From positions 1,344,001 to 1,408,000 of the forward strand of contig OY762463.1 of assembly GCA_963665815.1 (NCBI GenBank): 64,000 nt of DNA. The letters run 5' to 3'. The notes under the pieces were generated by a model. That model did no database searches and had not been told where the DNA came from. It saw only the letters and a program-made list of their open reading frames with translations. Below are positions 32,477 through 47,153 of the stretch, piece after piece. The first letter of the stretch is position 1. Every line of letters begins with the position of its first letter. The position numbers and the translations under genes are program-made. The stretch is from Candidatus Cloacimonadales bacterium (GTDB taxonomy: Bacteria > Cloacimonadota > Cloacimonadia > Cloacimonadales > JAIOQZ01).

Positions 32477-34945
32477 CTAAACCTCTTTATTTGTAACCGG
32501 AATCTTTATGACTACAGAAGTACCTTTATCCGGTTCACTATCAACATCTATTGAACCATTATGTATTGAAACTAACTCTTTGCTCAGCATAAAGCCAAGT
32601 CCTGATCCCTGTTCATTGTCTGTTCCTGTTCTCACTACATTATCATCAATCCTGTAAAGCTTTTCCACTTGCTCAGATGTCATTCCAATACCTGTATCAG
32701 AAACTGATATCTTATGAATACCCTCTTCGCATACATAATCCACACTGATTTTCCCACCTTGTCGGGTGAACTTAACAGCATTAGTCATCATATTAAGAAA
32801 AACTGTCTTCATCATGTTTCCATCAACCATAATCTGAATATCATCCGGTAATGCTATACTTAAGTCAATCCCCTTTCTTTCTGTCTGAATAAGGATCAAT
32901 GGGGCAATCTCTTTAAAAATATCTGCAATGCCAATCAGTTCCGGGTTAAACTTAAATGAACCGGTCTGAGTTTTCGCCCATTGCAGAAGATTCTGCAATA
33001 AATTCAGAACATGACGAATTCCTTTATGAATCTGACCAACCATATTTGTGATTTTCTCTTTGTCGAATCTATCATAGTGTTTTTCTACCATTTCAGCAGA
33101 TAACAGCAGTACCCCAAGCGGATTTTTCAAATCGTGAGCAATTATTGAGAACAATCTATCTTTTGCAGCATTAAGCTCAATCAGATTTTTTTCTGAAGCT
33201 TTTAAAGCAATCTCCGTATTTCGTATCTCAGTAATATTCTGCAGAAGAACAATATCACCGGCATATTCTGACTTATGGTCTTCATAACAGGAAAGATGAA
33301 TCAGAAAATACTGTACACCATGATTTTTGCTAACATACTCTCCGGAAAAAATTCTATCATCTTTATCACATCCTGCAGCATATTCGTAACCTAACATTGA
33401 TAAAATATCACTTGTTGTCATATCTCCTGCATCACCAGATGAAATTCCCAACAATTCATTTAACCTGCTATTGCTTCCAATTATCCTATGTTCCGAATTT
33501 GTATAAAACAGAGGATTAGCAACATTTTGCAGAATTCTTGTAAGGAGAGTATGCTTATCTTTAAGAATATCATTACTTAGTGTTATTTCTTCATTCTTAA
33601 AAGTTAATTCTTCTTTCTGATCAGTTATAAGAGCATTCTTCTCCAATAAATCCTGACTCAACAAGCTCTTAATCCTGTATCTACTGTAAGTGAGAAACAA
33701 AAGTAATAGTATCAGAAAGGCAATTACAAAAAAGAAAATAGTCCTTATTCTGATGGATCTCCTCTCATGCTCAAGTTCTTGTTCTTTTTTAGCAGTTTCA
33801 TATTGAACTTCCAGTTCGTTTATACTCCGTTCACTATCTCTGGTAAAAAGAGAATCCGAAAGCCTTATGTATTTGTCTCTGAACGTTACTGCTTTTTCGA
33901 GAGATTTCATTCTTTTTTTGTTTTCCTTATGCAGATGATAATGTTCGGATTTAACATCATAAAGATTACTCATTGCAGAATACAACTCAAGAATCTCATA
34001 TTGAAGATCAATCTCATTCATAACCTTCAATGCATCATACAACATAGATTCTGCTTTATTCAGGTATCTTTCATCATCCTCATTTTGTCCCTTTATCAGC
34101 AATAAAGCAGATATATTTTTTTTAAACATCGCAACAGATTCAATATCATTAAGTTTCATTGCTATTGCCAGTGCCATTGTATAATAATGAAATGCTTGCT
34201 CATGATCCTGCTCTGTACGATAAATTGCTGCCAGATTATTGTAGTTTGCTGCAACACCTTCAATATTATCAAGTGCTTTATCTATCTCCAGAGATTTTTC
34301 ATAGTATTTTTTTGCTGTATTCAAATCTCCGGAATCATGAGCAAAAATTCCAAGATTAGTATAAACACCAGACATGCCCATTTTATAATTGTGGTTTTCA
34401 AAGAATATTAAAGCTTGGTTAAAGTATCTTTTAGCCAGTTCAATTTTACTCAGTTCATAGTACATTGTTCCAATGTTTTGTAAGGATTCGCCTTCTGCGA
34501 TTTCATCTTCCAGCTGTTGAGCAATTTTTACAGATTTCTGGTAATACTCAAGTGCTGATTCATAATTTCCGAGATACTTATTTGCCAATCCCAGATTGTT
34601 AAATATCCTGTTCTTTTGTCTCAAGTTGTTTAACTTATCAGCATCTCCTAATGCATCAAGATAAATCTGCTCTGATCTTCGAAACTGAGACAGTCGCAAA
34701 TACGCATTCCCAAGCAGTATTTTAATATCCAGAACATCTTCATTATCTCGTGTTCTTCGTGCATCATCCAAAGCTGCTTTAATGTATTTCACAGCATCAG
34801 ACGGATTCTCATTTTTTATGTTCTCTGCTTTTTCCAGCATCTGTTTCCAGGATTCTTCCCTGGTCTTGTCGTTGTCTGCATGCAGAGGCAGCATCAACAG
34901 ATAGACTATGATTGATAAAAGTACCAGAGTCCTGTTTTTACACAT
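32477..34945 (-). CDS. Membrane TPR-TM-PAS sensor histidine kinase
   Basis: Signal peptide, extracytoplasmic TPRs, one TM, PAS-like domain, AHDLKNP, NMMTNAVKFT, DTGIGM, GSGLGF; start uncertain (34945-34984). Confidence 0.88.
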   Translation of the reverse strand: MCKNRTLVLLSIIVYLLMLPLHADNDKTREESWKQMLEKAENIKNENPSDAVKYIKAALDDARRTRDNEDVLDIKILLGNAYLRLSQFRRSEQIYLDALGDADKLNNLRQKNRIFNNLGLANKYLGNYESALEYYQKSVKIAQQLEDEIAEGESLQNIGTMYYELSKIELAKRYFNQALIFFENHNYKMGMSGVYTNLGIFAHDSGDLNTAKKYYEKSLEIDKALDNIEGVAANYNNLAAIYRTEQDHEQAFHYYTMALAIAMKLNDIESVAMFKKNISALLLIKGQNEDDERYLNKAESMLYDALKVMNEIDLQYEILELYSAMSNLYDVKSEHYHLHKENKKRMKSLEKAVTFRDKYIRLSDSLFTRDSERSINELEVQYETAKKEQELEHERRSIRIRTIFFFVIAFLILLLLFLTYSRYRIKSLLSQDLLEKNALITDQKEELTFKNEEITLSNDILKDKHTLLTRILQNVANPLFYTNSEHRIIGSNSRLNELLGISSGDAGDMTTSDILSMLGYEYAAGCDKDDRIFSGEYVSKNHGVQYFLIHLSCYEDHKSEYAGDIVLLQNITEIRNTEIALKASEKNLIELNAAKDRLFSIIAHDLKNPLGVLLLSAEMVEKHYDRFDKEKITNMVGQIHKGIRHVLNLLQNLLQWAKTQTGSFKFNPELIGIADIFKEIAPLILIQTERKGIDLSIALPDDIQIMVDGNMMKTVFLNMMTNAVKFTRQGGKISVDYVCEEGIHKISVSDTGIGMTSEQVEKLYRIDDNVVRTGTDNEQGSGLGFMLSKELVSIHNGSIDVDSEPDKGTSVVIKIPVTNKEV

Positions 34946-35807
34946 GTTTTTCATCCTGATATATCTTGTTGTATATCTGTTCAAGAGTAATCTTGTTTTC
35001 AGAAATTGATAATGAATGATTGTTCTCCGATTTTATTTCATTCAGTAATTCTGTTAGAACTAACTCGTTTTCGACTTTCTTATTTATTGTCTTTCCATTA
35101 ATAACATAAGACACTTCAAAACTTTTGTACAGGCTATATTTTTTAAATAAATTACTAAGATTATCCGACTCTATTTTTTTCCCTTGCTTCATTATCGTTA
35201 CTTTTTCACAGACAGACTCAACTTCATGAAGATTATGTGAAGAAATAATAATGGTTTTTCCCATATCTTGTCGATAACTCTTCAGTATCCCGGAAACTTC
35301 TTTAACAATAACGGGATCAAGTCCGGCAAAAGGCTCATCAAGGAATATTATATCCGGATCATTCAGGAATGTAACAGCAATAAGAGTCTTCTTATACATC
35401 CCTGTAGACAGTTTCTTGATCTTTTTCTTCAAAAACTCTGATAAATCAAACAATTCGACCAGCTCTGAGATTTTATTTTTTCTGTTTTCAATTTTGAATA
35501 TTGATGAAAAGAAATCCAGAACATCTTTCACATTAAGATCTTCATATAGTTTCAGTTTTTCAGTAAGAAAACCAATTTTTCTCTTTTCAACTTTCTTGAT
35601 TGTAGACAGCTTCCTGCCTTTAAAAAGCACTTCACCACTCGAAAAGGGTATAACTCCGTTTGCAATCATAAAAGCTGTTGTTTTACCGGCTCCATTATGA
35701 CCGAGAAGTGCCTGAATTCTACCTTCTTCAATACTCCAGGAAAAATCATCCAGAGCATTTGTCTCTTTATACTTTTTTGTTACATTTCTGAATTCTATTA
35801 ATGACAT
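34938..35807 (-). CDS. ABC-2 type exporter ATP-binding protein
   Basis: GHNGAGKT, LSTGM, IFLDEPF, ISSH. Confidence 0.9.
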   Translation of the reverse strand: MSLIEFRNVTKKYKETNALDDFSWSIEEGRIQALLGHNGAGKTTAFMIANGVIPFSSGEVLFKGRKLSTIKKVEKRKIGFLTEKLKLYEDLNVKDVLDFFSSIFKIENRKNKISELVELFDLSEFLKKKIKKLSTGMYKKTLIAVTFLNDPDIIFLDEPFAGLDPVIVKEVSGILKSYRQDMGKTIIISSHNLHEVESVCEKVTIMKQGKKIESDNLSNLFKKYSLYKSFEVSYVINGKTINKKVENELVLTELLNEIKSENNHSLSISENKITLEQIYNKIYQDEKHV

Positions 35808-35846
35808 ATATATCCTGCTTGATATTTAATTTGGGGGTTTGACAAC

Positions 35847-36851
35847 TTACATTGACTTGATTATTGTCCTTTTCATAAGAATCAAACTGAGGAAAAACAA
35901 CACAACTGTCAAAATACCGATCATAATTACAAGATTTATGGAGACATCATTTCTGATAATTTGTTCTACTAATTCTGTAATAAGAATCAAAGGATCAAGC
36001 TTGAGAATGAACTCCACAACAGAGTTAAGAGATTCCTTTATAACTGAATAAAATATAGTCGGGAACCATAGCAGCATTGGCAGATATCCCTTTATCATTT
36101 CGTTCGCAGTAACTGATGCGAAAAACAATCCGACCATTGCTGTTGGAATTACAACAACCGGTAGATAGATTAACAATGAAAAACTGAATGTAAGCATACC
36201 TGTTGCAATCGCAAGAGAATAGAATAACCCGAATGAAACAATTTGAATCAACAGAACACATACGAGCTTGCTTAACAAAAGCTCAGCTTTGGATATTCCT
36301 GATTTAAGCACAAGCAGAATGTTGTGTTTCTGAATCTCATGATGCAGCATTGATGTCCCGTAGTTCATTGATGAAAGCAATAAAAGGAAGTTAAGTACAA
36401 TAGTCAACAAAGCATAGTTCATACTGAATTTTTTCTTCAACGTAAACCTTTTCTCAGTAATCGGATAAAATTTATCTTTCAACAGAGCATATATTAACCC
36501 GGACTTCTCCTTGTTCGTATTCAAATAGACAACCTTCTCTTCTCCATCCATGTAATAGATTATTGGTAACTTCCCTTTTTCAAACTCCATAAGAAGAGAA
36601 TCTCTTCTCACATACTCAATATTGAGAGGAATTGGAGATTCAAGATATTCAAGAGTGATTTCATCTTTACCACCGAATTCTTGTGATAGTTCTTTCTGAA
36701 CATGAAGTTTGAGATTGTCTCCAGATGAATTCATCATAAAATTGAACAGAAACAAGTACAGAATTGGTATCCCAAGTGAAAATATCAGGACAACAGGATT
36801 CTTGTAGAGAATTTTAATGTCCTTAACTATCAACGCTATGTATTTACTCAT
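35847..36851 (-). CDS. ABC-2 type exporter permease
   Basis: N-terminal KDIKILYKN + TM, extracellular loop, then further TMs; adjacent to the ATPase. Confidence 0.8.
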   Translation of the reverse strand: MSKYIALIVKDIKILYKNPVVLIFSLGIPILYLFLFNFMMNSSGDNLKLHVQKELSQEFGGKDEITLEYLESPIPLNIEYVRRDSLLMEFEKGKLPIIYYMDGEEKVVYLNTNKEKSGLIYALLKDKFYPITEKRFTLKKKFSMNYALLTIVLNFLLLLSSMNYGTSMLHHEIQKHNILLVLKSGISKAELLLSKLVCVLLIQIVSFGLFYSLAIATGMLTFSFSLLIYLPVVVIPTAMVGLFFASVTANEMIKGYLPMLLWFPTIFYSVIKESLNSVVEFILKLDPLILITELVEQIIRNDVSINLVIMIGILTVVLFFLSLILMKRTIIKSM

Positions 36852-36911
36852 TATTCAACCTAAAAAAAAATAATGATTTAAAAATCCAGTTACCTATTGA
36901 TAAGTCAAGGA

Positions 36912-37322
36912 ATTTAGGAACTCAATTTGGCATCCCCCGTTTTTTCTTGAAAATCTGACTTCAAGAAAATTGGAAGGATTTTTAGCAGACATTTCTTAGA
37001 AAAATGCACTCTTCATTTTCTTTGGTGCCAAAGAAAACGAAACAAAAGAAAGGCACTCTTTTTAAAATGTATTTCCAGTAAACTGGAACCATAAATTTTT
37101 CCTAAAATCCTTCCAAGGCTTCAGGATTTCTTAACGGTTAAATTTATTATACAGTAAAAAAGAGAAATTGCTATCATCAATGCAAAACAATCATACTTAG
37201 TTCAAAGCTATTACATTGATTCATATTTTCCACTGATTTACTGTTTCAATACTTTTATTTATAATAAGTTATACATACATTGTATTTGGGTTTCGGGGGG
37301 ATGCATGATTTAGGAACTCAAT
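36912..37322. mobile_element. Non-autonomous insertion element (MITE-like, 381 bp) flanked by 15-bp direct repeats
   Basis: ATTTAGGAACTCAAT at 36912-36926 and 37308-37322; IR GCATCCCCC/GGGGGATGC each 3 nt inside the ends; several internal hairpins. Confidence 0.7.
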
Positions 37323-37364
37323 AAGATTGCAACAAAAATTGTATAAATAACTTGTAAAATAAAC

Positions 37365-37414
37365 AAAAACAGCATATCCAACTCTATATACTTAAAGAAC
37401 CGGATATGCCGTTT
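37365..37414 (-). terminator. Intrinsic terminator of the Cache gene
   Basis: Minus strand AAACGGCATATCC ... GGATATGCTGTTT then TT; loop is long (22 nt). Confidence 0.5.
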
Positions 37415-37448
37415 AATTTTGCTAATGTGCAAAACTCTAACATATATT

Positions 37449-37937
37449 TCATTTTTTTAAAATTTTTTCTACATCTTCCTTTGTATAATCATATATACCA
37501 GCAGCTACAATGTAATCTGTACCAGGGACTTTTTTTACATAAGAAACTTTGTCAGATACTTCGTTTTCACCTGCTTTAGGCCACTCATATTGTACCCAGC
37601 CAGCACCTTCACCTATACCAACCTTCACCATTTCAATCGCCCAGTAATTACCGTTTCTGTCTTTTGTAGTTTTAACATCTAATCCGACAAGGGTCGAATT
37701 CATAGGATGTGCAGCAATTCTGAGCGTCTTAGTGTTTATTACAAATACGTATGAATCTTTCCAGACAAATTGCCCATTTTTATTATTAATTTCTGTTAAA
37801 GCGGCATCTCCCTTTTCTTCAATCAGTTTACTGGCTTCCTCACATTTCTTTATAAGTTCCTGTGGTGTTGCTTTTTCAGTAGAAGCTGCAAGTAAACCTA
37901 CAGAAAGCAGGATAACCAGAATAATCATATTTCTCAT
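37449..37937 (-). CDS. Stand-alone periplasmic single Cache (sCache_2-like) protein
   Basis: Signal peptide; G.FVWKDSYVFV, AHPMN..LVG, GWVQYEWPK, K.SYV, VAAGIY; GGAG SD before ATG 37937. Confidence 0.85.
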   Translation of the reverse strand: MRNMIILVILLSVGLLAASTEKATPQELIKKCEEASKLIEEKGDAALTEINNKNGQFVWKDSYVFVINTKTLRIAAHPMNSTLVGLDVKTTKDRNGNYWAIEMVKVGIGEGAGWVQYEWPKAGENEVSDKVSYVKKVPGTDYIVAAGIYDYTKEDVEKILKK

Positions 37938-38118
37938 AAATAACTCCTTTATTCTAAAAAATAATGTAATATTATGGCTAAACAAATAAAAAATTATACT
38001 GACTCATAAAGCATGTCTTAAATTTTGAATCATGACTCAGAATGGATTAATATAATCTGAAACTTGGATTTACGGTAATTTCTTGACATCTGAAAGCAAT
38101 AATGAAATTGATGCATTA

Positions 38119-38207
38119 TCGCCGAATAGTGTTACCTAAACATTTGCATGGAGCACTATCGATAGGGTTGTTCTGGAAACGGAACTGCCTCCCGTTTGGA
38201 AAGGCGA
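38119..38207 (+). ncRNA. Moco-family riboswitch lacking P3 (predicted tungsten-cofactor, Tuco, subtype)
   Basis: P1 UCGCC/GGCGA; P2 AUAGUGUU/AGCACUAU enclosing a CCUAA...AUGG tetraloop receptor; P4 AGGG..GUUCUG-GAAA-CGGAAC..CCU; 3' GCCUCCCGUUUGGAAAGG matching the moaA-leader consensus; no P3. Confidence 0.9.
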
Positions 38208-38265
38208 GGAAGAAATAACGTACAATTCGTATCTTTCTTGCCTTCAAAAAAATATTTTTTGGAGG
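38201..38265 (+). promoter_or_regulatory. Riboswitch expression platform (anti-sequestrator and SD sequestrator)
   Basis: 38201-38213 can pair with 38232-38244; alternatively CCUUCAAAAAA (38241-38251) pairs with UUUUUUGGAGG (38255-38265), covering the SD. Confidence 0.7.
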
Positions 38266-38269
38266 ATTA

Positions 38270-40099
38270 ATGAAAAAATTAAATCTTTTACTTTTAACGG
38301 CGTTACTTATGTTTATGCTTGCAATAGGTGCATGCAGCGAAGACGACAATGATGATAACAATAATGATGTTGTTGTTGAACCGACTTTTACTTTTACTAT
38401 GCCTGACAGCTCAGAACTCGCAATAAGCTTTATAGCTTCAGTTGTTGATTATGACGGTACAGATGTAACAGGTTATTCACTTGATCAATTTATTCCGGAA
38501 GATCCTTACGATCTTGAAATCTCCAGAGCTGTTGGCGATGATATTTTTGATGATGATGTGAGAAATCTTTTTGTTTACGAACTGCTTGGCGAAGATGGTT
38601 TTACACCTTATGAAAACGGTGAAAAACATCTTGCCTGGGAAGTATTCAAAACAGGATACTTTCTTCCAACTGAAAAATCCAAGGCATTCTTTGCAGATGA
38701 AGAAATTGTTAAAGCATATAATGTGAGATACTTGGATAAGTTTAACCTTTACAGAGCTTTCAGAGTCTCTAAAATGGATATAGAAACAACATTCTTAACA
38801 GGTGCATATTCAAATTCAAATGTTTCTTTCACTGATAGAAAAGATAATGCCGTAACCTACGAAGGCTTTAAACTTGAAGATATGATTAATCCTGATGTAA
38901 CAACCACTCCTGAGAACTACACTTACTACGTTGGTGCTGTTGACGGCTGGATTAATGACGATACAAACAACACATTCACATGGGCACAAATGCAGAATGC
39001 TTATTTCTTCCCTGAAGAAAACAGAGTATGCTTCATTGAAAACGGTACAGAAGTTTTCAAACCTGTAAAAAGCCCATACTCCATTGAACTTACCGAAACA
39101 AACCCTCCAAGTATTGCTGCCCCAACAGATCTTACTGTAAACACAGATTCAGACATCGTTCTTTCATGGACTGATAACAGTGACAACGAAACAGGTTTCA
39201 CAATTGAAAGAAAATACGATTCCGAAGATGCTTTTGTAGCTGTTGACAGCGTAGATGCCAATGTAACAACCTATACTGATACTAATGCAGATTTTGCTCA
39301 GCAAATTAAATACAGAGTCGCTGCACACAATTCAGAAGAAATGTCCTACTATACTAATGAAGTTACTTTAGATGCTTCAGCTACTCCACCAGCTCTGGCG
39401 GACACGACTAAAATCGCTGTTCAATTTGAGCTTGATTTCACAGATTTGTCTTCTTACACTTCAGAAACAATCACTGTTGAAGGTGCAGATGTAACTGCTT
39501 ATAAACTTGACCAGTTTATTGATCAGTCTGAAGTAACAGCTCTCTACGGTGAAGACGGTGTAGACTGTAGAGCATTCTACTGTTACCATCTTGTCGCTGC
39601 TGACAGCTGGTCACCAAGAGACAAAGATAACAGAGACCTTACATGGGCTGAATTCAGTTCAGGTTACTGGCTTGAAGGTGATCAGAAAGCTTACTTCCCA
39701 TCAGAGGATATTTCAAGACAGTTTGATGTGGGAGATCTTAAATATGTTAATCTTTATAACACAATAAACATCTCTGATGCAGATGGTAACCTCATCACTC
39801 CATTTGAATACTTGGGAGCTGAAACACAAAGCATTACTTATATTCACCATGAAGAAGAATACACAGAAGATGCTGTTCCTTTGACATCAATCATTACATC
39901 TTACGTTACAACTGACCCTGCAAGCTATACTTACGATTTTGCAGCAGCAGACGGTTGGGAAACAGATCCTGTAACTTGGGAAAACATGCAGAAAGGTTAC
40001 TGGCTTGTTAATGCAAACAAAGCTGTATTCATTGATGCAGCCGGAAATCAGGTTATTACCGGAATCAAAAGCGTTGTAGGAATTCAGTTAATACAGTAA
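38270..40099 (+). CDS. Acidic lipoprotein: two pairs of molybdopterin-binding-like domains around an FN3 domain
   Basis: Lipobox AIGA-C; four repeats of G(Y/F)xLxxxI...Y...AxDG(W/F)...W...GY(F/W)L...F; FN3 segment APTDL...LSWTDNSDNETGF..ER. Confidence 0.7.
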   Translation: MKKLNLLLLTALLMFMLAIGACSEDDNDDNNNDVVVEPTFTFTMPDSSELAISFIASVVDYDGTDVTGYSLDQFIPEDPYDLEISRAVGDDIFDDDVRNLFVYELLGEDGFTPYENGEKHLAWEVFKTGYFLPTEKSKAFFADEEIVKAYNVRYLDKFNLYRAFRVSKMDIETTFLTGAYSNSNVSFTDRKDNAVTYEGFKLEDMINPDVTTTPENYTYYVGAVDGWINDDTNNTFTWAQMQNAYFFPEENRVCFIENGTEVFKPVKSPYSIELTETNPPSIAAPTDLTVNTDSDIVLSWTDNSDNETGFTIERKYDSEDAFVAVDSVDANVTTYTDTNADFAQQIKYRVAAHNSEEMSYYTNEVTLDASATPPALADTTKIAVQFELDFTDLSSYTSETITVEGADVTAYKLDQFIDQSEVTALYGEDGVDCRAFYCYHLVAADSWSPRDKDNRDLTWAEFSSGYWLEGDQKAYFPSEDISRQFDVGDLKYVNLYNTINISDADGNLITPFEYLGAETQSITYIHHEEEYTEDAVPLTSIITSYVTTDPASYTYDFAAADGWETDPVTWENMQKGYWLVNANKAVFIDAAGNQVITGIKSVVGIQLIQ

Positions 40100-40100
40100 A

Positions 40101-40631
40101 ATGTTCAAAAAAAAACTCAAAACAATAGATATATTATATATTGCTGTTTTTGCAGCTTTAGGACTGGCGGTTAAACCAATCGTCAGTCCTCTTAACAAAC
40201 TGGTACCAATCCCCGGAGGTTCGCTTGCCGGTGGATTCTATATGATGTGGATGGCTATTGCCGTTGCTTGTGTCAAAAGATTCGGAACCGGATTGCTTTT
40301 CGGAGTAGTGCAAATGCTTGTTGTATTATCAATTGGCTTCTTCGGCAATCATGGATTAGTATCTTTGATCACATACACCCTCCCAGGACTGGTTATGGAC
40401 ATTGCAGGATTGTTCATGAAAACAGGAAAAAGTCCGGTTGAACAAGTTATTCTGTGCACAACAGGAAATATGACAGGTGCAGCAATCGTGGCATTTCTGG
40501 TTATGCGACTTGCAATGATACCTCTGATGATTTCACTTACCGCTGCTGCTGTTTCCGGAATAATTGGTGGACTGACATCATATTACATATTGAAACAACT
40601 ACAAAAATACGAACTTATGCAGGAATTATGA
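40101..40631 (+). CDS. ECF transporter S component (YkoE/HMP-thiamine-permease-like family)
   Basis: 176 aa, hydrophobic, D.LYIAVFAAL AxxxA motif, PGGSLAGGFYMMW; same operon as EcfA, EcfA' and EcfT. Confidence 0.8.
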   Translation: MFKKKLKTIDILYIAVFAALGLAVKPIVSPLNKLVPIPGGSLAGGFYMMWMAIAVACVKRFGTGLLFGVVQMLVVLSIGFFGNHGLVSLITYTLPGLVMDIAGLFMKTGKSPVEQVILCTTGNMTGAAIVAFLVMRLAMIPLMISLTAAAVSGIIGGLTSYYILKQLQKYELMQEL

Positions 40632-41527
40632 AAAAAATAATTATCTTATTAACTATAATGGCTGTTTTTATGAATATTGCCGCCTTAAAGGTAGGAAGCA
40701 AAGAATATTCTCTCGAAGCATTGAAAAAACTTGATCAGCAGAAAGTCAAAACAGAATATGAGAAAAGAGGTGAACTTAGAAAGAACACCTGGAGTGGCAT
40801 ACCTGTGAAACTTTTATTGAAAGAATCCGACATCTGGAAAGATAACTCTGAATTCGTGTTTCAGTCTGCTGACAACTATCTTGTAAGACTCAATTCGGAA
40901 GATCTACCATCTGACAAAGCAATAATCGCACTGACAAAAGATGGAGAAGAACTTGATGAAGAACATATCAGGCTTATTGTTAAGGACATGAGAGATATGT
41001 TCTGGATTCGTGGAATAGCAAAAATTTCAAGAACAGAACCCAATGAGATTCAATTACCGGAATATGTATTTAATGGAGAAAATTTCATTAAGATCTATAA
41101 TTTTGACAATGATCCCGGTAAGTTTAAAAACGATGAAGGCTATAAGCTTGCTGATTTTCTGAACAAAGCATTTCCATCAACTGAAGGTGAATTTACAATC
41201 TTCGGAAAAGATGGTGTTAATCACACACTGGATTTCGATCAATTTCTTAAAAATGCCCGAATCCTTAAAGATGAAAAGTCATTTTCACTCAAAAGTGAAG
41301 ATATGCCAGGTGGAATGTGGATTAAGAATCTGATATGCGTATTCCGAAACAATCGCGTTATATTCTTCACAACTAACTATGAAGAAGTAGAATCTGTATT
41401 TGCGAAAATCTTTGACAATAAGAAATTGGAATACAAAATCTATATGAATCTTGAAAACTCAGAAATCAATATTGATAAAGGTGAAGAAGCAGAATTATGG
41501 AAAAACGCTTTATTGTTCCGACAATAG
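40628..41527 (+). CDS. Periplasmic protein with two sulfite-oxidase-type molybdopterin-binding-like domains
   Basis: Start at ATG 40628 with signal peptide; WSGIPVKLLL..FVFQSADNY..IIAL.KDGEEL..IRLIV...FWIRGIAKI; second copy EGYKLADFL..GKDG..GMWIKNL. Confidence 0.7.
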   Translation: MKKIIILLTIMAVFMNIAALKVGSKEYSLEALKKLDQQKVKTEYEKRGELRKNTWSGIPVKLLLKESDIWKDNSEFVFQSADNYLVRLNSEDLPSDKAIIALTKDGEELDEEHIRLIVKDMRDMFWIRGIAKISRTEPNEIQLPEYVFNGENFIKIYNFDNDPGKFKNDEGYKLADFLNKAFPSTEGEFTIFGKDGVNHTLDFDQFLKNARILKDEKSFSLKSEDMPGGMWIKNLICVFRNNRVIFFTTNYEEVESVFAKIFDNKKLEYKIYMNLENSEINIDKGEEAELWKNALLFRQ

Positions 41528-42768
41528 CAGTAATTATTCTTGTACTTGTATCTGGATGCGGAAATAAAAATCTAAGAATCAACGGCAATCTTGATACCAG
41601 AATAATCATTTCCGAGAGTATACAGCTTAATGATGCTCTTAAAAGAGAAAGATTTGAGAACATACTTATTGAAGGCGACAACGGCGTTGCTGCATTAATT
41701 TCAGCAGATACTGCCAGAGAAATCGCAATTGAGAGATTAGAAAAAGGTTTTTCAGCTGATTCTGATGGGTTACCTCCTGTATGTAACATCAATAATATCT
41801 CAAGCATTTCAGTATATGCATCCTGTTACGATTACGAGATCAGATTTTTTGATGGGATAAATGAAATAGAGCGTCTCACTCCATTCAATTATATGATGAA
41901 AGAATTTGATTTTCTTGGAGAGTCCAGTAAAAATGGACATTCTGCCAGAAAATTCAAACGCAAATCGGATTATCTTCATAACTGGATGAAAGAAGATTCT
42001 ATTCTCGTCATAACTGAAAAAGAGACTAACAAAATACTGCAAAAACCAGAGTTCGAGGAGATTATCTTTGATGGTAAACAATTAGTTTATAATAATGAAA
42101 GAATAATTGGGCTATGGGCTAATCCTCCTCTCAGAATGGAGCAACTTACCGGTATCTTTGAGGATTCACTTGTTAACAGTAATTTAATGGTGATTTTCAT
42201 CGATGGTCTCGGAGTAAAATATATTGATCAGAACTCAGAAGCTGTAAAACTATTTACTGAAGACTATACTTTCAGTCCTCTGCTTTCAGCATACCCATCT
42301 AAGACAAAAAAAAATAGCTGGGTCATGATGTCTGGGAAAGATCATAAGCTTGAGGGAAGAAAAGTTCTGGAAGAATTTGAGGTTCACGAATCAATACTTG
42401 TTGAAGGAGATCATGTTTACAACACATCAGCTATTCCTATGATCCAATGTACTGATATGGATAAAGACGGATTCATTGATGAAGAGATTTTTGAAGCTGC
42501 TCGAGAGGCAGTCAAAAAGAAACCTGATTTTCTGATAGTACATTTCCACTCATTTGATGATTTTGGTCATGAAACAGGGGCATATTCTCCTGAAAGAGAT
42601 TCCATTCTTGCATTGAATTACAAATATGTTAAATCATTAACAGATAACTGGAATGGTAAAGTGATGCTTGTATCAGATCATGGAATGCACACAAAATCTA
42701 ATGGTAAAGGAACGCATGGAAGCCTTATGCTGGATGACATGTTGGCAATAAAAGGAGAAACAAAATGA
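41497..42768 (+). CDS. Lipoprotein with C-terminal alkaline-phosphatase superfamily (NPP-like) domain
   Basis: Lipobox LVSG-C; VIFIDGLG, YPSKT, HFHSFDDFGH..G, VSDHGMH, GTHG. Confidence 0.8.
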   Translation: MEKRFIVPTIAVIILVLVSGCGNKNLRINGNLDTRIIISESIQLNDALKRERFENILIEGDNGVAALISADTAREIAIERLEKGFSADSDGLPPVCNINNISSISVYASCYDYEIRFFDGINEIERLTPFNYMMKEFDFLGESSKNGHSARKFKRKSDYLHNWMKEDSILVITEKETNKILQKPEFEEIIFDGKQLVYNNERIIGLWANPPLRMEQLTGIFEDSLVNSNLMVIFIDGLGVKYIDQNSEAVKLFTEDYTFSPLLSAYPSKTKKNSWVMMSGKDHKLEGRKVLEEFEVHESILVEGDHVYNTSAIPMIQCTDMDKDGFIDEEIFEAAREAVKKKPDFLIVHFHSFDDFGHETGAYSPERDSILALNYKYVKSLTDNWNGKVMLVSDHGMHTKSNGKGTHGSLMLDDMLAIKGETK

Positions 42769-43166
42769 AATACATTATTGGTATACTTGTAGCTTTGATA
42801 TTACTTTTAACAGCACTGATTATGTACAAACAATCAGAGAAACTTGTTGATCTTGGTACCAGAATTCACTTTGATAAATACTATGCTCAAATGCAGAATA
42901 TCAAATCTGAAAAAGTTTCTTACAACGCTAAAGAATTAGAAGTTATCAAAGTTAATGATGTGCTTGGTTTATTCGAAGTAGACAAAAAAGGATTATCTTC
43001 CATCACATTCTTTGCCAATGATGGAGGTTCTTTGAAAGTTGATTCAAACGAACTGGATAACCTTTATTTACAGGCTATGGAAAACGGAACTTACAGACTT
43101 GTTATTCCGAGTGATCAATTTAAACAAAGATGGCTTAAAAACATTGCAAGTATAGAATGCCAGTAA
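42765..43166 (+). CDS. Membrane-anchored single molybdopterin-binding-like domain protein
   Basis: N-terminal TM; ITFFANDGG..., YRLVIPSDQFKQRWLKNIASIE. Confidence 0.65.
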   Translation: MKYIIGILVALILLLTALIMYKQSEKLVDLGTRIHFDKYYAQMQNIKSEKVSYNAKELEVIKVNDVLGLFEVDKKGLSSITFFANDGGSLKVDSNELDNLYLQAMENGTYRLVIPSDQFKQRWLKNIASIECQ

Positions 43167-43167
43167 A

Positions 43168-43833
43168 ATGTCATTGATCAGTATTTCCAATCTCAATTTC
43201 CGCTACAACCTTTCCGGAAATCATATTATACGTAACTTTTCAGCAGAATTGGAAAAGGGGAAAATTTATGGAATTTCAGGAGAGAGCGGTTCGGGAAAAT
43301 CTACTTTGTTAAAGCTTATTAGTGGAATTATACCGGAATACTTCAACGGAATCGTAGAAGGAATAGTAAAACTGGCAGATAAACCTGTTAAAGAATATGA
43401 ATCTTTCAATCTTGGTAAGACTCTGCAATTCGTTATGCAGGAACCTGATCATCAGTTGTTTCTGCCAACCGTACTGGATGAACTAATATTCAGCAGTGAA
43501 AACTACTCCTTTTCAAGAGAACAGATTCAGCAGAATCTAAACAGAGTATTAAATATATTTCCACTACAGGACTTTCTGAACACCTATACTAACAAATTGT
43601 CGTATGGCACCAAAAGACTGGTTAACATAGCATCAGCAGAGATGATAAGACCGGATATTATTATCATTGATGAACCTTTCAGTGGATTGTCAGGTAAAAT
43701 GATCACACTGCTTAAGAAGTTCTTCCTGCAGATTAAGTCTGATAACAGAACAGTGATACTGACAGATCATCATATTGAGAATGAAAATATATGTGATACC
43801 GTATTCTCCCCCGAAGATTTCTGTAAGGAATGA
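43168..43833 (+). CDS. ECF transporter ATPase (EcfA)
   Basis: GESGSGKST, GIIPEYFNG...G, Q-loop QEPDHQLF..TV.DEL, LSYG, IIDEPF. Confidence 0.85.
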   Translation: MSLISISNLNFRYNLSGNHIIRNFSAELEKGKIYGISGESGSGKSTLLKLISGIIPEYFNGIVEGIVKLADKPVKEYESFNLGKTLQFVMQEPDHQLFLPTVLDELIFSSENYSFSREQIQQNLNRVLNIFPLQDFLNTYTNKLSYGTKRLVNIASAEMIRPDIIIIDEPFSGLSGKMITLLKKFFLQIKSDNRTVILTDHHIENENICDTVFSPEDFCKE

Positions 43834-44459
43834 TTATGCTCAGAATAAGCAACCTTTCATGCGGATTCAAAGATAAACTTTTACTTAAAAACAGCAAATT
43901 AACGGCTGAACCTGGCAATATAATCAGGATTTCAGGAGATAACGGTATAGGTAAATCAACCTTTCTGCAATGCCTTATAGGGCTGCACGAAGCTTCCGAT
44001 GGTACAGTAATACTCAATTCAACTGATCTGCTTAACTCTCCTACTGAAAAATGTGCAGAAACTGTTTTCTACCAGAGACAGAAGCCCTATGACAATGTGC
44101 TGTTCACGACACCATTACAGGAAATGTGCTTTTTTACAGATCAGAACAAAGCTGAAGGCATACTGAAGAAATATAACCTTTATGAAGTTCGGAACTCACC
44201 TGTATGGAATCTCAGTTACGGGCAGGTAAAGAGAATCACTTTTAGTGTCATGGACACAATGAATAAAGAGCTGTATTTACTTGACGAGCCTTTTGCAGGT
44301 CTCGACAGAACCAATGCCGAAATTGTTGCTTCATCTGTTGATCAACTGGCTGGTAACGGAAAAATAGTAATTATTATAAGTCACAACGATAAAATTTGTT
44401 CTAACCTTAACGCAATAAAATTTGAAATAAGAAACAGGCAATTCATTGCTGTTGAATAG
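43830..44459 (+). CDS. ECF transporter ATPase (EcfA')
   Basis: GDNGIGKST, LSYGQVKR, LLDEPFAGLD, ISHN. Confidence 0.85.
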   Translation: MIMLRISNLSCGFKDKLLLKNSKLTAEPGNIIRISGDNGIGKSTFLQCLIGLHEASDGTVILNSTDLLNSPTEKCAETVFYQRQKPYDNVLFTTPLQEMCFFTDQNKAEGILKKYNLYEVRNSPVWNLSYGQVKRITFSVMDTMNKELYLLDEPFAGLDRTNAEIVASSVDQLAGNGKIVIIISHNDKICSNLNAIKFEIRNRQFIAVE

Positions 44460-44469
44460 AGGATATTAA

Positions 44470-46419
44470 ATGAAAAAACATGTAATTTTTGTGTGTATCT
44501 TTCTGATTACCTGTATGTTAGTTGCAGAAGATAACCAGAAAAAACCTGAATACGAAATGCAATATGTAAATGAGGATTCTACAAAACTTGTTAAAGTATA
44601 CAAAATGGAGAGCATCCGGGTTGTCGAAGCTAAATCAAAATCCAGCTTCAGTAAGCCTGTTATTAAAACGATCCCTGAAAATGAGAGTCCCAAAGACTTA
44701 CAGGCAGCAGATCTGCTTGAAGACATCAATGGTGTTGAACTGCAGACCGGAGGAAAAGACGGTCAACATATCAGCATCCGTGGTTTCAAACAATCTCAGA
44801 TCAAGATACTTGTTGATGGCAGACCTTATGGAAGCGGATACTTCGCGAACATAGATCTGAGTACAATTCCAGTCTCTGAGATTAAGGAAGTAAGAGTTAT
44901 AAAAGGGCCTGTAGCATCAGTATATGGTTCTGACACCATGGGCGGAGTTGTAAATATTATTACTAAATCTCCAGATGATAAGAAATGGGGTAATGTTGGA
45001 GTAATAGTTAAAAGAAATGTCACTAACAAGGAGTATATCTCTGTGTCCCACGATTTTGACTCATTTGATTTCTGGGTGTATGGCAGCAGAAATCAGAGAA
45101 CAGGATTCATGCTGTCTGAAGACTTTGAACCGACTCCGAATGAAAATGGTAATGTAAGAAATAACATGGATTCCGAACAATATGACTTCATGTCAAAATT
45201 TAATTACGAAGCAACTGAGAAACTCAATCTTGGATTAGATGCAAGCTTTTCCTATGCTGCAGACAAAGAGATTCCTTCCAGTATAGATGATAAACTATAC
45301 AGAAAATTCACAGATGTAAAAAGATTTCAGGAATCAGTTTTTGCAAAATATATGGTAAACGACTACTGGATATGTGATTTCAACAGTTATTTTGACTACA
45401 ATGAAGACAGCTATGCTGAGTACAGTGATGAAGATCTGACTGATATGAATTCCAGCTGGCCATCAAAACTGAAACACTCTACGCTTGGTTTTACACAGAA
45501 CAATACTTACACAATGCTGAATGAAAATGTTATAGCTTTTGGATTCCGTTTCGAGAACCAGACTTACAATCGAAAAGGTGGAACTAATTACGAAGACTGG
45601 GTTTCCAATAATTACTCTTACATTAACGGATTCCTCCAGTACACTCATAAGATTTCTGATTTCAGAATTATTGGAGGCACAGGAGTTTCCATGTTTACTC
45701 TTAACGATGAATTTGATTTCAATACTCATTTCGAACCGTCAATTTCCGTTAACTATTCTACTCAGAAAACGGAGAATTCAATAAGCTATGCAATAAATAC
45801 AAAATTTCCATCCCTGCAAAACCTTTACGGCAGTTCAAGCGGGAATGAAGATTTGACTGAGCAGAAAGCTCATAGAGCAGAATATTCATTCAGCTATTCA
45901 GATGTTATTAATACAGGTTCAGTAAGTGTCCCTGTGAACTATTCCACACAAGTTTTTTATAACAGGATTGAGGATGAGATTCAGGAAATAAATAACACAT
46001 ATGAAAATGTATCAGAATATGAGTCTTACGGTTTTGATTCAAGCCTGAAGTTTAAGCTTCTTACTTCTCACACAATAGAATACTCATTTCTTAAACTGCA
46101 TGACAGCCCGAAAGAGCTTCCGATTCCATCGAGAAACTCGGTAAAAGTTGTGGAGTCATATGAGTTTGAACCAATCAGAGATATGAAAGCTTCTGTTTTC
46201 GGTGAGTTTCAATACAAGGATATCGTAACAGACTTTGACTATGATGTTGTGGATGTAATCTCTCCATATTGGATTCTTAACTCAGGATTTAACACAAAGT
46301 TCCTGCAATACAAATTTTCATTTGAAGTTGAGAATATCCTGGATACAGACTATGAAACAAGAATCGGCTATCCAATGCCGGGAATCAACTACATATTGTC
46401 TATGGAGTACTCGTTTTAA
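44470..46419 (+). CDS. TonB-dependent outer-membrane receptor (BtuB/CirA-like)
   Basis: Signal peptide; plug ISIRGF...ILVDGRP...VIKGPVASVYGSDTMGGVVNIITK; C-terminal ENILD..Y....GYPMPG..Y....EYSF. Confidence 0.92.
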   Translation: MKKHVIFVCIFLITCMLVAEDNQKKPEYEMQYVNEDSTKLVKVYKMESIRVVEAKSKSSFSKPVIKTIPENESPKDLQAADLLEDINGVELQTGGKDGQHISIRGFKQSQIKILVDGRPYGSGYFANIDLSTIPVSEIKEVRVIKGPVASVYGSDTMGGVVNIITKSPDDKKWGNVGVIVKRNVTNKEYISVSHDFDSFDFWVYGSRNQRTGFMLSEDFEPTPNENGNVRNNMDSEQYDFMSKFNYEATEKLNLGLDASFSYAADKEIPSSIDDKLYRKFTDVKRFQESVFAKYMVNDYWICDFNSYFDYNEDSYAEYSDEDLTDMNSSWPSKLKHSTLGFTQNNTYTMLNENVIAFGFRFENQTYNRKGGTNYEDWVSNNYSYINGFLQYTHKISDFRIIGGTGVSMFTLNDEFDFNTHFEPSISVNYSTQKTENSISYAINTKFPSLQNLYGSSSGNEDLTEQKAHRAEYSFSYSDVINTGSVSVPVNYSTQVFYNRIEDEIQEINNTYENVSEYESYGFDSSLKFKLLTSHTIEYSFLKLHDSPKELPIPSRNSVKVVESYEFEPIRDMKASVFGEFQYKDIVTDFDYDVVDVISPYWILNSGFNTKFLQYKFSFEVENILDTDYETRIGYPMPGINYILSMEYSF

Positions 46420-46421
46420 CA

Positions 46422-47153
46422 ATGAAATCTCTGGATGTACGCACAAAAATATCTCTGGTAATGCTGGTTACATCACTATCGGTAATATATCAGAATCTTA
46501 TACTGCAGTCGGTTCTGCTGGCTGCAGCGTTTCTGCTTGTATTGCTTCTTGCTGAGACGAGAGAAGGACGCAAAGGAATGAGTCCTTTCAGAATGTTAAA
46601 GACTATTACTATTATCTTCTTTGCCCAAATATTTTTCAGGCAAACAGGAGACATCCTGTTTCAATACTCGTTTATAAAAATCACAACTGACGGACTCGTC
46701 TATGCAGGGAGTTCCACCAGTCGTCTTCTGATTATCTTCATGTCTGCTAAGATCCTGTTTGGTGTTCCTTTAACCGAGTTTGTCATAGCCTTTCGTAAAT
46801 GGAAGATTCCTTATGTAATCTCGTTTATGGTAGCAATGGTAATTCACCTGATTCCGGATTTCAGTCATAAAGTAAGAAATAAAATGGAACTGCTCAAAAT
46901 CCGTGGTCATGCCTTCGGTTCCATGTCTCTCTCAGAGAAGATTAAGATAATCTCAAGAATCATTGTCCCGATTGTAGGCGAAGCACTCTCTCAGGCACGC
47001 TACAGAGTTGTATCTCTGGAAATGCGAGGATTTCACAGCTCCGGTAGACGCACCTACTTTAAAGACAAATCACTCTCCCCTATTGACTATGCTATTCAGA
47101 TTCCTGTTCTTGTTGTGTTTGTGGCTGGGATTGTCGGAGGTTTTCAAATGTAA
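46422..47153 (+). CDS. ECF transporter T component (EcfT/CbiQ)
   Basis: LDVRTK start, TM helices, two conserved Arg motifs (KIRG, EMRGF). Confidence 0.88.
   Translation: MKSLDVRTKISLVMLVTSLSVIYQNLILQSVLLAAAFLLVLLLAETREGRKGMSPFRMLKTITIIFFAQIFFRQTGDILFQYSFIKITTDGLVYAGSSTSRLLIIFMSAKILFGVPLTEFVIAFRKWKIPYVISFMVAMVIHLIPDFSHKVRNKMELLKIRGHAFGSMSLSEKIKIISRIIVPIVGEALSQARYRVVSLEMRGFHSSGRRTYFKDKSLSPIDYAIQIPVLVVFVAGIVGGFQM

Follow-up and report, generated by a model that had tools for sequence, protein, structure and literature searches.

The leader of the Escherichia coli moaABCDE operon carries a riboswitch for the molybdenum cofactor (Moco), which is described as a genetic OFF switch with an expression platform involving the ribosome binding site (PMC2408646). 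As given in the same report (Regulski 2008, PMC2408646), 58 of the 176 representatives of the motif are 'Tuco' variants which lack the stem P3, and such P3-lacking RNAs co-occur with genes for the tungsten cofactor (Wco) in 17 of 19 organisms, tungsten-cofactor organisms being defined there by tupA/tupB or wtpA homologs. The tungsten-specific role of the P3-less variants rests on this 2008 correlation. Here we analyzed an RNA of this kind in a stretch of 64,000 nucleotides (the window, to which all coordinates refer unless another contig is given) from a Candidatus Cloacimonadales bacterium (contig OY762463.1, positions 1,344,001 to 1,408,000 of the forward strand), where it forms the leader of an operon at 38270-47153 (+). 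Like the E. coli leader the RNA belongs to the Rfam family RF01055 and is a predicted OFF switch at the ribosome binding site, but the E. coli RNA has P3 and its control was reported to be lost on P3 mutation (PMC2408646), whereas the window RNA is P3-less.

The pairings of this leader were confirmed, and modelling together with comparison of homologous leaders makes it very probable that the leader acts as a translational OFF switch. The genes under its control most likely form part of a cofactor-salvage regulon. The wider proposal, that Cloacimonadota scavenge Moco or Wco by means of a machine controlled by P3-less riboswitches, which would be the first bacterial Moco/Wco importer, is one that we hold with about even confidence.

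The aptamer was found with cmscan as a match to RF01055 at 38108-38222 (+), scoring 61.6 bits (E 2.2e-12) where the gathering score is 36, and RF01055 was the sole Rfam family at gathering score within the window. The alignment spans model positions 1-135 and includes P1, P2, P4 and P5 as well as the conserved junctions (GCCUCCC, GGAAAGG and the GAAA tetraloop on P4), while the columns of the P3 hairpin are deleted. The initial annotation, made from the sequence alone, had described P3 as missing and P2 as joined to P4 by CGAU; both the sequence and the RF01055 alignment bear this out, the linker in place of P3 being CGAUA at 38160-38164 (CGAU 38160-38163, then A 38164). The 5' strand of P1, UCGCC (38119-38123), pairs with GGCGA at 38203-38207. 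The three other RF01055 copies of the same genome likewise lack P3 (4/4 P3-less). By its sequence the RNA is a member of the P3-lacking subgroup of RF01055, and the Shine-Dalgarno (SD) sequestering OFF platform predicted for it is an ordinary one. The motif is tied to genes of the Mo/W cofactors, as other copies precede an aldehyde:ferredoxin oxidoreductase (AOR) gene with ThiS- and ThiF-like genes and, in relatives, the motif stands before ModA/TupA transporters and moa genes. Upstream of the aptamer, TTGACA at 38083-38088 (+) is a possible -35 box of the leader promoter, and in three of this genome's four copies, the window copy among them, a perfect TTGACA is found 20-25 nucleotides before the aptamer begins. 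A promoter consensus scan called no full promoter near the leader, and a convincing -10 box at the usual spacing from TTGACA was not seen.

Two hairpins follow which share one strand segment. The anti-P1 (anti-sequestor) hairpin at 38201-38244 (+) pairs AAGGCGAGGAAGA (38201-38213) with UCUUUCUUGCCUU (38232-38244) through 13 pairs, two of them G-U, and contains the 3' strand of P1, GGCGA (38203-38207). The sequestor hairpin at 38241-38265 (+) pairs CCUUCAAAAAA (38241-38251) with UUUUUUGGAGG (38255-38265) through 11 pairs, one of them G-U, and its 3' strand ends in the SD sequence GGAGG (38261-38265), which is followed by AUUA and the ATG at 38270-38272. All of these P1, anti-P1 and SD pairings had been read in the initial annotation and all are present. 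The segment CCUU (38241-38244) is common to both hairpins, and in the folding model this overlap is the core of the mechanism.

The minimum free energy (MFE) of 38108-38280 was -49.8 kcal/mol (z = -4.11; 0/200 dinucleotide shuffles folded as well), and the unconstrained MFE structure contained the anti-P1 hairpin. With the five pairs of P1 enforced the MFE was -46.1 kcal/mol, 3.7 kcal/mol above the free MFE; in this fold the 11-bp SD hairpin was present, of the anti-P1 hairpin only the upper part was kept, and the cost of opening GGAGG went from 3.5 kcal/mol to 7.9 kcal/mol. The SD hairpin obtained in this way is the one described in the initial annotation. Comparison of the two MFE structures showed CCU of this leader paired with the P1-3' segment when P1 was free and with the SD when P1 was engaged. 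No intrinsic terminator was found on the + strand in 37700-38500, and both terminator-like sites in that interval lie on the - strand, so that control is most simply translational. In the mechanism that we propose, the 3' strand of P1 with its extension (38201-38213) would pair with 38232-38244 when ligand is absent, which would tie up the anti-SD CCUU and leave GGAGG largely accessible. Binding of a pterin cofactor would lock P1 (38119-38123 with 38203-38207) and release the strand 38241-38251, which would then pair with 38255-38265 and so sequester the SD, placed four bases ahead of the ATG.

The design was compared across a sample of 61 genomes, consisting of the bacterium's own genome (one closed contig of 3,963,599 bp, 98.66% complete) and 60 relatives. 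The RF01055 motif was found in 44 of the 61 genomes with 78 matches in all, four of them in the own genome. About 4.9 kb downstream were examined for 61 of the 74 matches in relatives (13/74 were left out), and the first genes after the motif were classified with Pfam and with profiles built in this analysis. The resulting 65 leaders, the four own copies included, divide into 35 before the uptake system, 15 before NAD-type aldehyde dehydrogenases, 4 before AOR genes, 4 before ModA/TupA-type ATP-binding cassette (ABC) transporters, 2 before FeFe hydrogenase genes and 5 that were unclassifiable (L041-L044, L096). In the two hydrogenase cases (L087 and L092, from G012 and G028) the motif lies 220-255 nucleotides upstream of the genes for the large subunit, and AOR was not found in these genomes. 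One relative (L080, G039 contig C130) has two Moco motifs about 660 nucleotides apart on the same strand, and each is followed by a paralog of the lipoprotein that the first gene encodes.

Among 34 uptake leaders, drawn from 29 genomes, opening the SD became costlier by 2 kcal/mol or more in 29 once P1 was enforced, and cheaper by as much in none; the median rise was +4.3 kcal/mol (medians 3.5 free and 8.4 with P1). When the spacer between P1 and SD was shuffled, a rise of at least 2 kcal/mol occurred in 7 of 204 controls (median 0.0). For sequence comparison 28 of the 34 uptake leaders were aligned with MAFFT, six being left out as atypical by eye. In this alignment G91-G96 (GGAAAG) and C81, C82 and C84-C86 of GCCUCCC are invariant, and G97 is present in at least 90% of the leaders. 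In seven leaders (L048, L055, L061, L073, L093, L095, L065) the aptamer core reads GCCUUCC...GAAAAGG in place of GCCUCCC...GGAAAGG, a compensatory change from C-G to U-A.

P1 and the sequestor helix together were 92.1% paired in the 28 leaders, against 36-59% when the 3' partners were slid, and 0/500 shuffles reached this value; the sequestor helix alone was 95.7% paired. Changes on both sides were seen in four of the five pairs of P1 and in only one pair of the sequestor helix, because the SD side is nearly fixed: the SD columns read GGAGG in 26 of 28 leaders, with the A and the next G invariant. We had also considered that the lineage might avoid SD-led initiation, as suspected from Bacteroidota-like genes, and this was rejected since GGAGG stands 4-9 nucleotides before the start in most aligned leaders. 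The lower seven pairs of the anti-P1 helix were 81.1% paired, compared with 43-54% when slid. When P1-3' segments were swapped among the 28 leaders, the cognate anti-P1 duplex had a median energy of -15.2 kcal/mol versus -9.9 kcal/mol for non-cognate duplexes (-18.4 kcal/mol versus a non-cognate mean of -10.6 in the window leader), and the cognate was the best partner in 14/28 leaders and in the top tenth in 18/28. A swap of only the variable 10 nucleotides after GGCG against the whole spacer was less discriminating, the cognate beating at least 90% of non-cognates in 7/32 leaders, because a purine/pyrimidine composition common to the leaders blurs the signal. In an ungapped anchored count of pair runs the cognate run was the longest in 5/28 leaders, a count which is too rigid because the helices have bulges. 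On the aligned sequences we conclude that the variable upper part of the anti-P1 helix does covary. The OFF-switch architecture put forward in the initial annotation is thus upheld, at the level of a model, by constrained folding, by the contrast between leaders and shuffles, by the level of pairing, by the partner swap and by the lack of a + strand terminator.

Not all leaders of the class have the same predicted polarity. In the leaders before AOR genes (2623925-2624041 (+) in the own genome, G000:C1, and L040, L075 and L069 in relatives), where the SD lies within about 15 nucleotides after P1, the SD became easier to open with P1 enforced, by 2 kcal/mol or more in 4/4 cases (median change -5.9), and these are predicted to be ON switches. 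An OFF switch was predicted for 11 of 15 leaders before NAD-type aldehyde dehydrogenases and for 3 of 4 before ModA/TupA transporters. Two P3-less leaders of the own genome (G000:C1:716557-716678 (+) and 2877215-2877337 (-)) precede NAD-type semialdehyde dehydrogenases, namely L-piperidine-6-carboxylate dehydrogenase and L-glutamate gamma-semialdehyde dehydrogenase, both above NCBIfam cut-offs, and 13 more such leaders occur in relatives. In the folding model, the dehydrogenase and AOR leaders together suggest a switch between isozymes that depends on the cofactor. With cofactor present, the pterin-dependent, ferredoxin-linked enzyme (AOR) would be made, and the importer and the cofactor-independent isozymes would be shut off. 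The predicted ON polarity of AOR and OFF polarity of dehydrogenases and transporters fit an RNA that senses the finished cofactor.

The supply of this cofactor was considered from the gene content of the own closed genome. Six-frame family searches found none of MoaC, the MoaA C-terminal domain, MoaE or MoeA_N there (controls matched in 11/14 genomes), and the single match to MoCF_biosynth was a CinA protein. For MobA (TIGR02665) the best match reached 83.6 bits against a cut-off of 151.85, and all 14 controls matched at E <= 0.001. TupA, WtpA and ModA were counted as not found in this genome, since the only PBP_like_2/SBP_bac_11 match is PstS-like and heads a pstSCAB-like phosphate operon. 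A tblastn search with the riboswitch-operon proteins of a relative from the same order (ModA-like, permease, MoeA, MoaC and MogA-like) returned nothing from the own genome except a generic ATPase. The genome does encode users of the cofactor, three AOR-family genes and one gene of the bis-pterin enzyme type, whose 918-residue product has Molybdopterin, Molydop_binding and Fe4S4 domains. A ThiS-like (MoaD-like) and a ThiF-like (MoeB-like) gene follow AOR at L006:2306-3270 (G000:C1:2626105-2627069), although MoaE was not found, and this pair may serve sulfur transfer in repair or maturation of the cofactor. Judged by its genes, the organism most likely cannot make the cofactor and is auxotrophic for it. 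The lack of the biosynthetic pathway had gone unseen in the initial annotation, and it changes the probable imported substrate. Since biosynthetic genes for Moco/Wco were not found, the RNA most likely senses cofactor that the cell has scavenged, probably in its tungsten form.

The same pattern was followed through the 61 genomes, with homologs of the 299-residue protein of the operon (described below) as the operon marker. MoaC was not found in 39 of the 44 riboswitch-bearing genomes and in 40 of the 42 genomes with the marker, marker and MoaC occurring together in two only. AOR without MoaC was seen in 35 genomes, 33 of which carry the marker; the completeness of the two that do not is 91% and 82%, and in one of these two the lipoprotein gene follows a riboswitch. 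Fourteen of the 61 genomes have none of these features. Both MoaC and MoeA are present in four genomes, three of them marker-less, and in these three the riboswitch stands before ModA/TupA-type transporters. Judged by 80 further loci, the marker family falls almost wholly within Candidatus Cloacimonadota.

The initial annotation had expected an uptake operon, and the Pfam and NCBIfam matches identify genes of a TonB receptor and an energy-coupling factor (ECF) transporter downstream of the leader, all on the + strand. The first gene (38270-40099) encodes a 609-residue lipoprotein with tandem copies of a domain of about 270 residues (two hidden Markov model domains, E 1.9e-87 and 2.5e-86); it is a duplication of the lipoprotein of about 270 residues which heads the operon in relatives, and no Pfam match was found for it. 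Next come an ECF S-component-like membrane protein of 176 residues (40101-40631; PF09819 ABC_cobalt, E 1.1e-07, 32.4 bits against a cut-off of 25.2), an exported protein of 299 residues whose N-terminal part has the sulfite oxidase (SUOX) Moco/pterin-binding fold (40628-41527; Pfam Oxidored_molyb, E 5.7e-07, 29.7 bits against 24), a 423-residue lipoprotein, its lipobox read in the sequence, with a C-terminal type I phosphodiesterase/nucleotide pyrophosphatase domain (41497-42768; PF01663, E 7.6e-12) and an exported protein of 133 residues (42765-43166) which belongs to no assigned family and has counterparts of similar size at the same place in the operons of relatives. Two ECF-type ABC ATPases of 221 and 209 residues (43168-44459; Pfam ABC_tran), a TonB-dependent outer-membrane receptor of 649 residues (44470-46419; Pfam Plug, E 3.6e-19) and an ECF T component of the CbiQ family with 243 residues (46422-47153; PF02361, E 2.4e-16) complete the operon, which thus holds a full ECF set of S component, T component and two ATPases. 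The best NCBIfam matches of the first ATPase were ECF_ATPase models; these and the ECF_T_CbiQ match fell below the curated cut-offs, and we therefore regard the transporter as a divergent ECF subfamily. The best NCBIfam match of the receptor was TonB-B12, at 110.6 bits far under the cut-off of 599.7. Divergent from the leader, four genes at 32477-37985 (-) encode a small Cache-domain protein, an ABC-2 permease with its ATPase and a TPR-containing histidine kinase, and no link between them and the riboswitch was seen.

Structural models were used for the two kinds of protein with a possible pterin-binding fold. The N-terminal copy of the lipoprotein domain was modelled with a predicted local distance difference test (pLDDT) score of 88.7, and VIA re-alignment gave Z scores of 9.3-9.8 with pterin-binding proteins of the PruR kind and of 7-9.1 with sulfite oxidases, unrelated structures being at 5.0 or below. 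Plain Foldseek returned no match to this domain at E <= 0.001, and only the VIA re-alignment set PruR and SUOX apart. The A3 profile had no meaningful match among PDB sequences, and neither the A2 nor the A3 profile detected additional copies in the 133-residue protein or the pyrophosphatase. In the model of the 299-residue protein (pLDDT 89.4) the first 140 or so residues align structurally with the Moco domains of sulfite oxidase and SoxCD (VIA Z 16.8, root-mean-square deviation 2.7 A, 127 residues aligned); Z was 14.1-15.6 to PruR, 14.6 to the PruR-neopterin complex and 3.4 or less to unrelated structures. In molybdoenzymes of the SUOX family a conserved cysteine ligates the metal and is required for catalysis. 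An invariant cysteine was found at none of the positions in 16 homologs of the 299-residue protein, and residues 1-140 of the window protein contain no cysteine at all. With a SUOX-like domain that lacks this residue, the protein looks like a binding protein and not an enzyme, and in the model it looks like one of the PruR type.

Taken together, these proteins would make up an envelope-spanning importer of TonB receptor, SUOX-fold lipoproteins, pyrophosphatase and ECF transporter. Surface lipoproteins with a sulfite-oxidase-like pterin pocket would catch cofactor from the community, and the TonB-dependent receptor would hand it to the periplasmic SUOX-fold carrier. The pyrophosphatase could trim dinucleotide forms, and the ECF transporter would bring the cofactor into the cell. 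The aptamer match, the pairings, the modelled energies, the repeated design among relatives, the gene content and the folds are results of the analysis; that the RNA binds its ligand, which way control runs in vivo, what is transported and which metal is involved are what we infer from them.

A number of results weigh against the switch as we read it. Even when P1 is not formed, the SD is no more than partly accessible at equilibrium, with an opening cost of 3.5 kcal/mol and a mean SD pairing probability of 0.70 in the isolated 3' domain (a measure on truncated domains which the opening energies on full leaders supersede), and co-transcriptional folding may therefore matter. Five of the 34 leaders had no effect in the folding model, P1 was poorly located in a few (1-3 pairs), and the opening energies of three leaders differed between two runs with different motif rules. 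Leaving six atypical leaders out of the alignment favours the model. The lower anti-P1 pairs are conserved and not covarying, as 26/500 shuffles reached their level of pairing and 44/500 their covariation score, and the two helices share at least two nucleotides in only 17 of 34 MFE pairs of isolated 3' domains. If the alternative pairings were incidental, the SD hairpin would be constitutive or the aptamer a non-regulatory relic, in keeping with an SD that is partly paired at equilibrium even without P1. We consider this highly improbable, given an intact aptamer of 61.6 bits, a design present in most uptake leaders and rarely in shuffles with helix sequences that are lineage-specific, and AOR leaders of opposite polarity. 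Riboswitches that act on translation frequently set off Rho termination or RNA decay as well. Control might hence act chiefly through transcription or RNA decay (Rho-dependent termination or RNase), making SD occlusion secondary or irrelevant, and the leader and gene start are indeed A/U-rich; it seems quite unlikely, as there is no terminator-like site on the + strand and the anti-SD/SD pairing is what the 28 leaders conserve.

A second set of alternatives accepts the OFF switch and concerns what is imported. The operon could bring in tungstate or molybdate as oxyanion, in the way that the ECF systems CbiMNQO/NikMNQO import cobalt and nickel. The family matched by its S component takes its name from cobalt transport, its T component is CbiQ-like, relatives with MoaC and MoeA have the same class of riboswitch before ModA/TupA transporters, and the members of Moco-riboswitch regulons named in PMC3766115 include Mo and W transporters and, as listed there, not cofactor transporters. 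The metal alone would however be useless without MoaA, MoaC, MoaE and MoeA, none of which was found, and oxyanion import needs neither the two kinds of pterin/Moco-fold protein nor a nucleotide pyrophosphatase. The marker, moreover, occurs in 40 genomes without MoaC and in two with it. We rate oxyanion import as rather unlikely, and import of the cofactor remains our preferred reading; against it, the genomes compared are related and are not independent samples, and the phyletic pattern is therefore suggestive and not statistical proof. As for the metal, the Tuco (tungsten) assignment of the window RNA is circumstantial. It is favoured by the lack of P3 in all four own-genome copies, by AOR-family enzymes as the main predicted users of the cofactor and by the 17 of 19 organisms reported in PMC2408646. 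It is disfavoured by the tungstate transporter not having been found in the own genome, by the capacity of AOR-family enzymes to carry molybdenum, as reported for E. coli YdhV (PMC9103625), and by the homologous uptake operon of a relative without MoaC (G030), which is preceded by a Moco motif that has the P3 stem (L064:4616-4761 (-), 73.5 bits), so that the absence of P3 is not strictly tied to this type of operon. The molecule sensed and imported might accordingly be a molybdenum form, a metal-free pterin or a precursor, in which case the absence of P3 would not be a mark of tungsten here; TupA-, WtpA- and ModA-type proteins were not found, and the enzyme with Molybdopterin and Molydop_binding domains could take either metal. 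For a metal-free pterin the known loading route would be closed without MoeA. We regard a ligand other than the tungsten cofactor as a tentative alternative, less probable than the tungsten form and less easily set aside than oxyanion import.

The Moco/Tuco riboswitch is among the few widespread classes for which, to our knowledge, direct binding of the ligand has never been demonstrated, not even with the E. coli RNA, owing to the great lability of the cofactor. The present lineage offers short leaders, a readable switch and both predicted polarities, OFF and ON, in one genome, and as there is no endogenous synthesis the supply of ligand would be controllable entirely from outside. If the proposal is true, a bacterial importer would change the view of cofactor auxotrophy and cross-feeding in anaerobic digesters, and it would account for the use of AOR by abundant amino-acid-fermenting syntrophs that have no moa genes. 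It would likewise be a source of proteins able to bind and stabilise the cofactor, along with a riboswitch reporting externally acquired tungsten cofactor. In the literature covered, mainly open access and without supplements, we found no Moco-class riboswitch before a TonB/ECF system with pterin-fold proteins in a pathway-less lineage with isozyme control. Among the matches listed for Moco uptake, import, salvage or transporters there were only nematodes, eukaryotes or MoaA, and the main texts of two genome surveys of Cloacimonadota do not mention molybdenum, tungsten, cofactor, riboswitch or TonB.

Compared with the E. coli RNA as described, which controls biosynthesis in a maker of the cofactor, the window RNA precedes an importer in a genome where the pathway genes were not found, and it has a separate anti-sequestor/sequestor relay after P1. 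With the Tuco variants it shares the absence of P3 and a link with AOR, a family typical of tungsten use. The published Tuco variants, to the extent given in PMC2408646, precede genes for molybdopterin (MPT) synthesis, tungsten enzymes or tungstate transporters in organisms with tupA or wtpA, whereas such transporter and MPT-synthesis genes were not found in the own genome. Unlike those described variants, the RNA class of the own genome also stands before NAD-type aldehyde dehydrogenases and the TonB/ECF system. In YkoEDC the YkoE-type (PF09819) S component has a function in thiamine or hydroxymethylpyrimidine (HMP) transport. The window operon resembles such systems in its PF09819 match, its CbiQ-like T component and its two ATPases in the same operon, and differs from them in riboswitch class and accessory proteins.

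The logic of the regulon is closest to that of vitamin B12 (cobalamin) auxotrophs, in which cobalamin riboswitches are combined with a BtuB-type TonB receptor, surface B12-binding lipoproteins, ECF-CbrT or BtuCDF and B12-independent isozymes. In both cases a cofactor riboswitch represses, or here is predicted to repress, uptake across the outer and inner membranes together with cofactor-independent isozymes. The two cases differ in cofactor, in RNA family and in binding proteins (of SUOX fold here), and the likeness is one of functional analogy and not of membership. Among the regulon members given in PMC3766115 are 'isozymes of B12-dependent enzymes' and B12 transporters. The nearest structural counterparts are the PruR proteins, described as periplasmic pterin-binding proteins (PDB 7KOM, 7KP2, 7KOS/7KOU, 7RKB; PMC11194511). 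The operon proteins are likewise exported and of SUOX fold, PruR binds pterin, and the SUOX domain of the 299-residue protein is free of cysteine; similarity in sequence between operon protein and PruR is marginal (E 0.0038-0.02). PruR is described as a single domain of about 140 residues which signals to a diguanylate cyclase, while the domain here lies within larger proteins of a transporter operon headed by a Moco riboswitch. What is new relative to these systems is the context of a proposed riboswitch-governed Moco/Wco salvage, with a pathway whose genes were not found, its pattern across the genomes and a regulon of leaders predicted to be ON or OFF.

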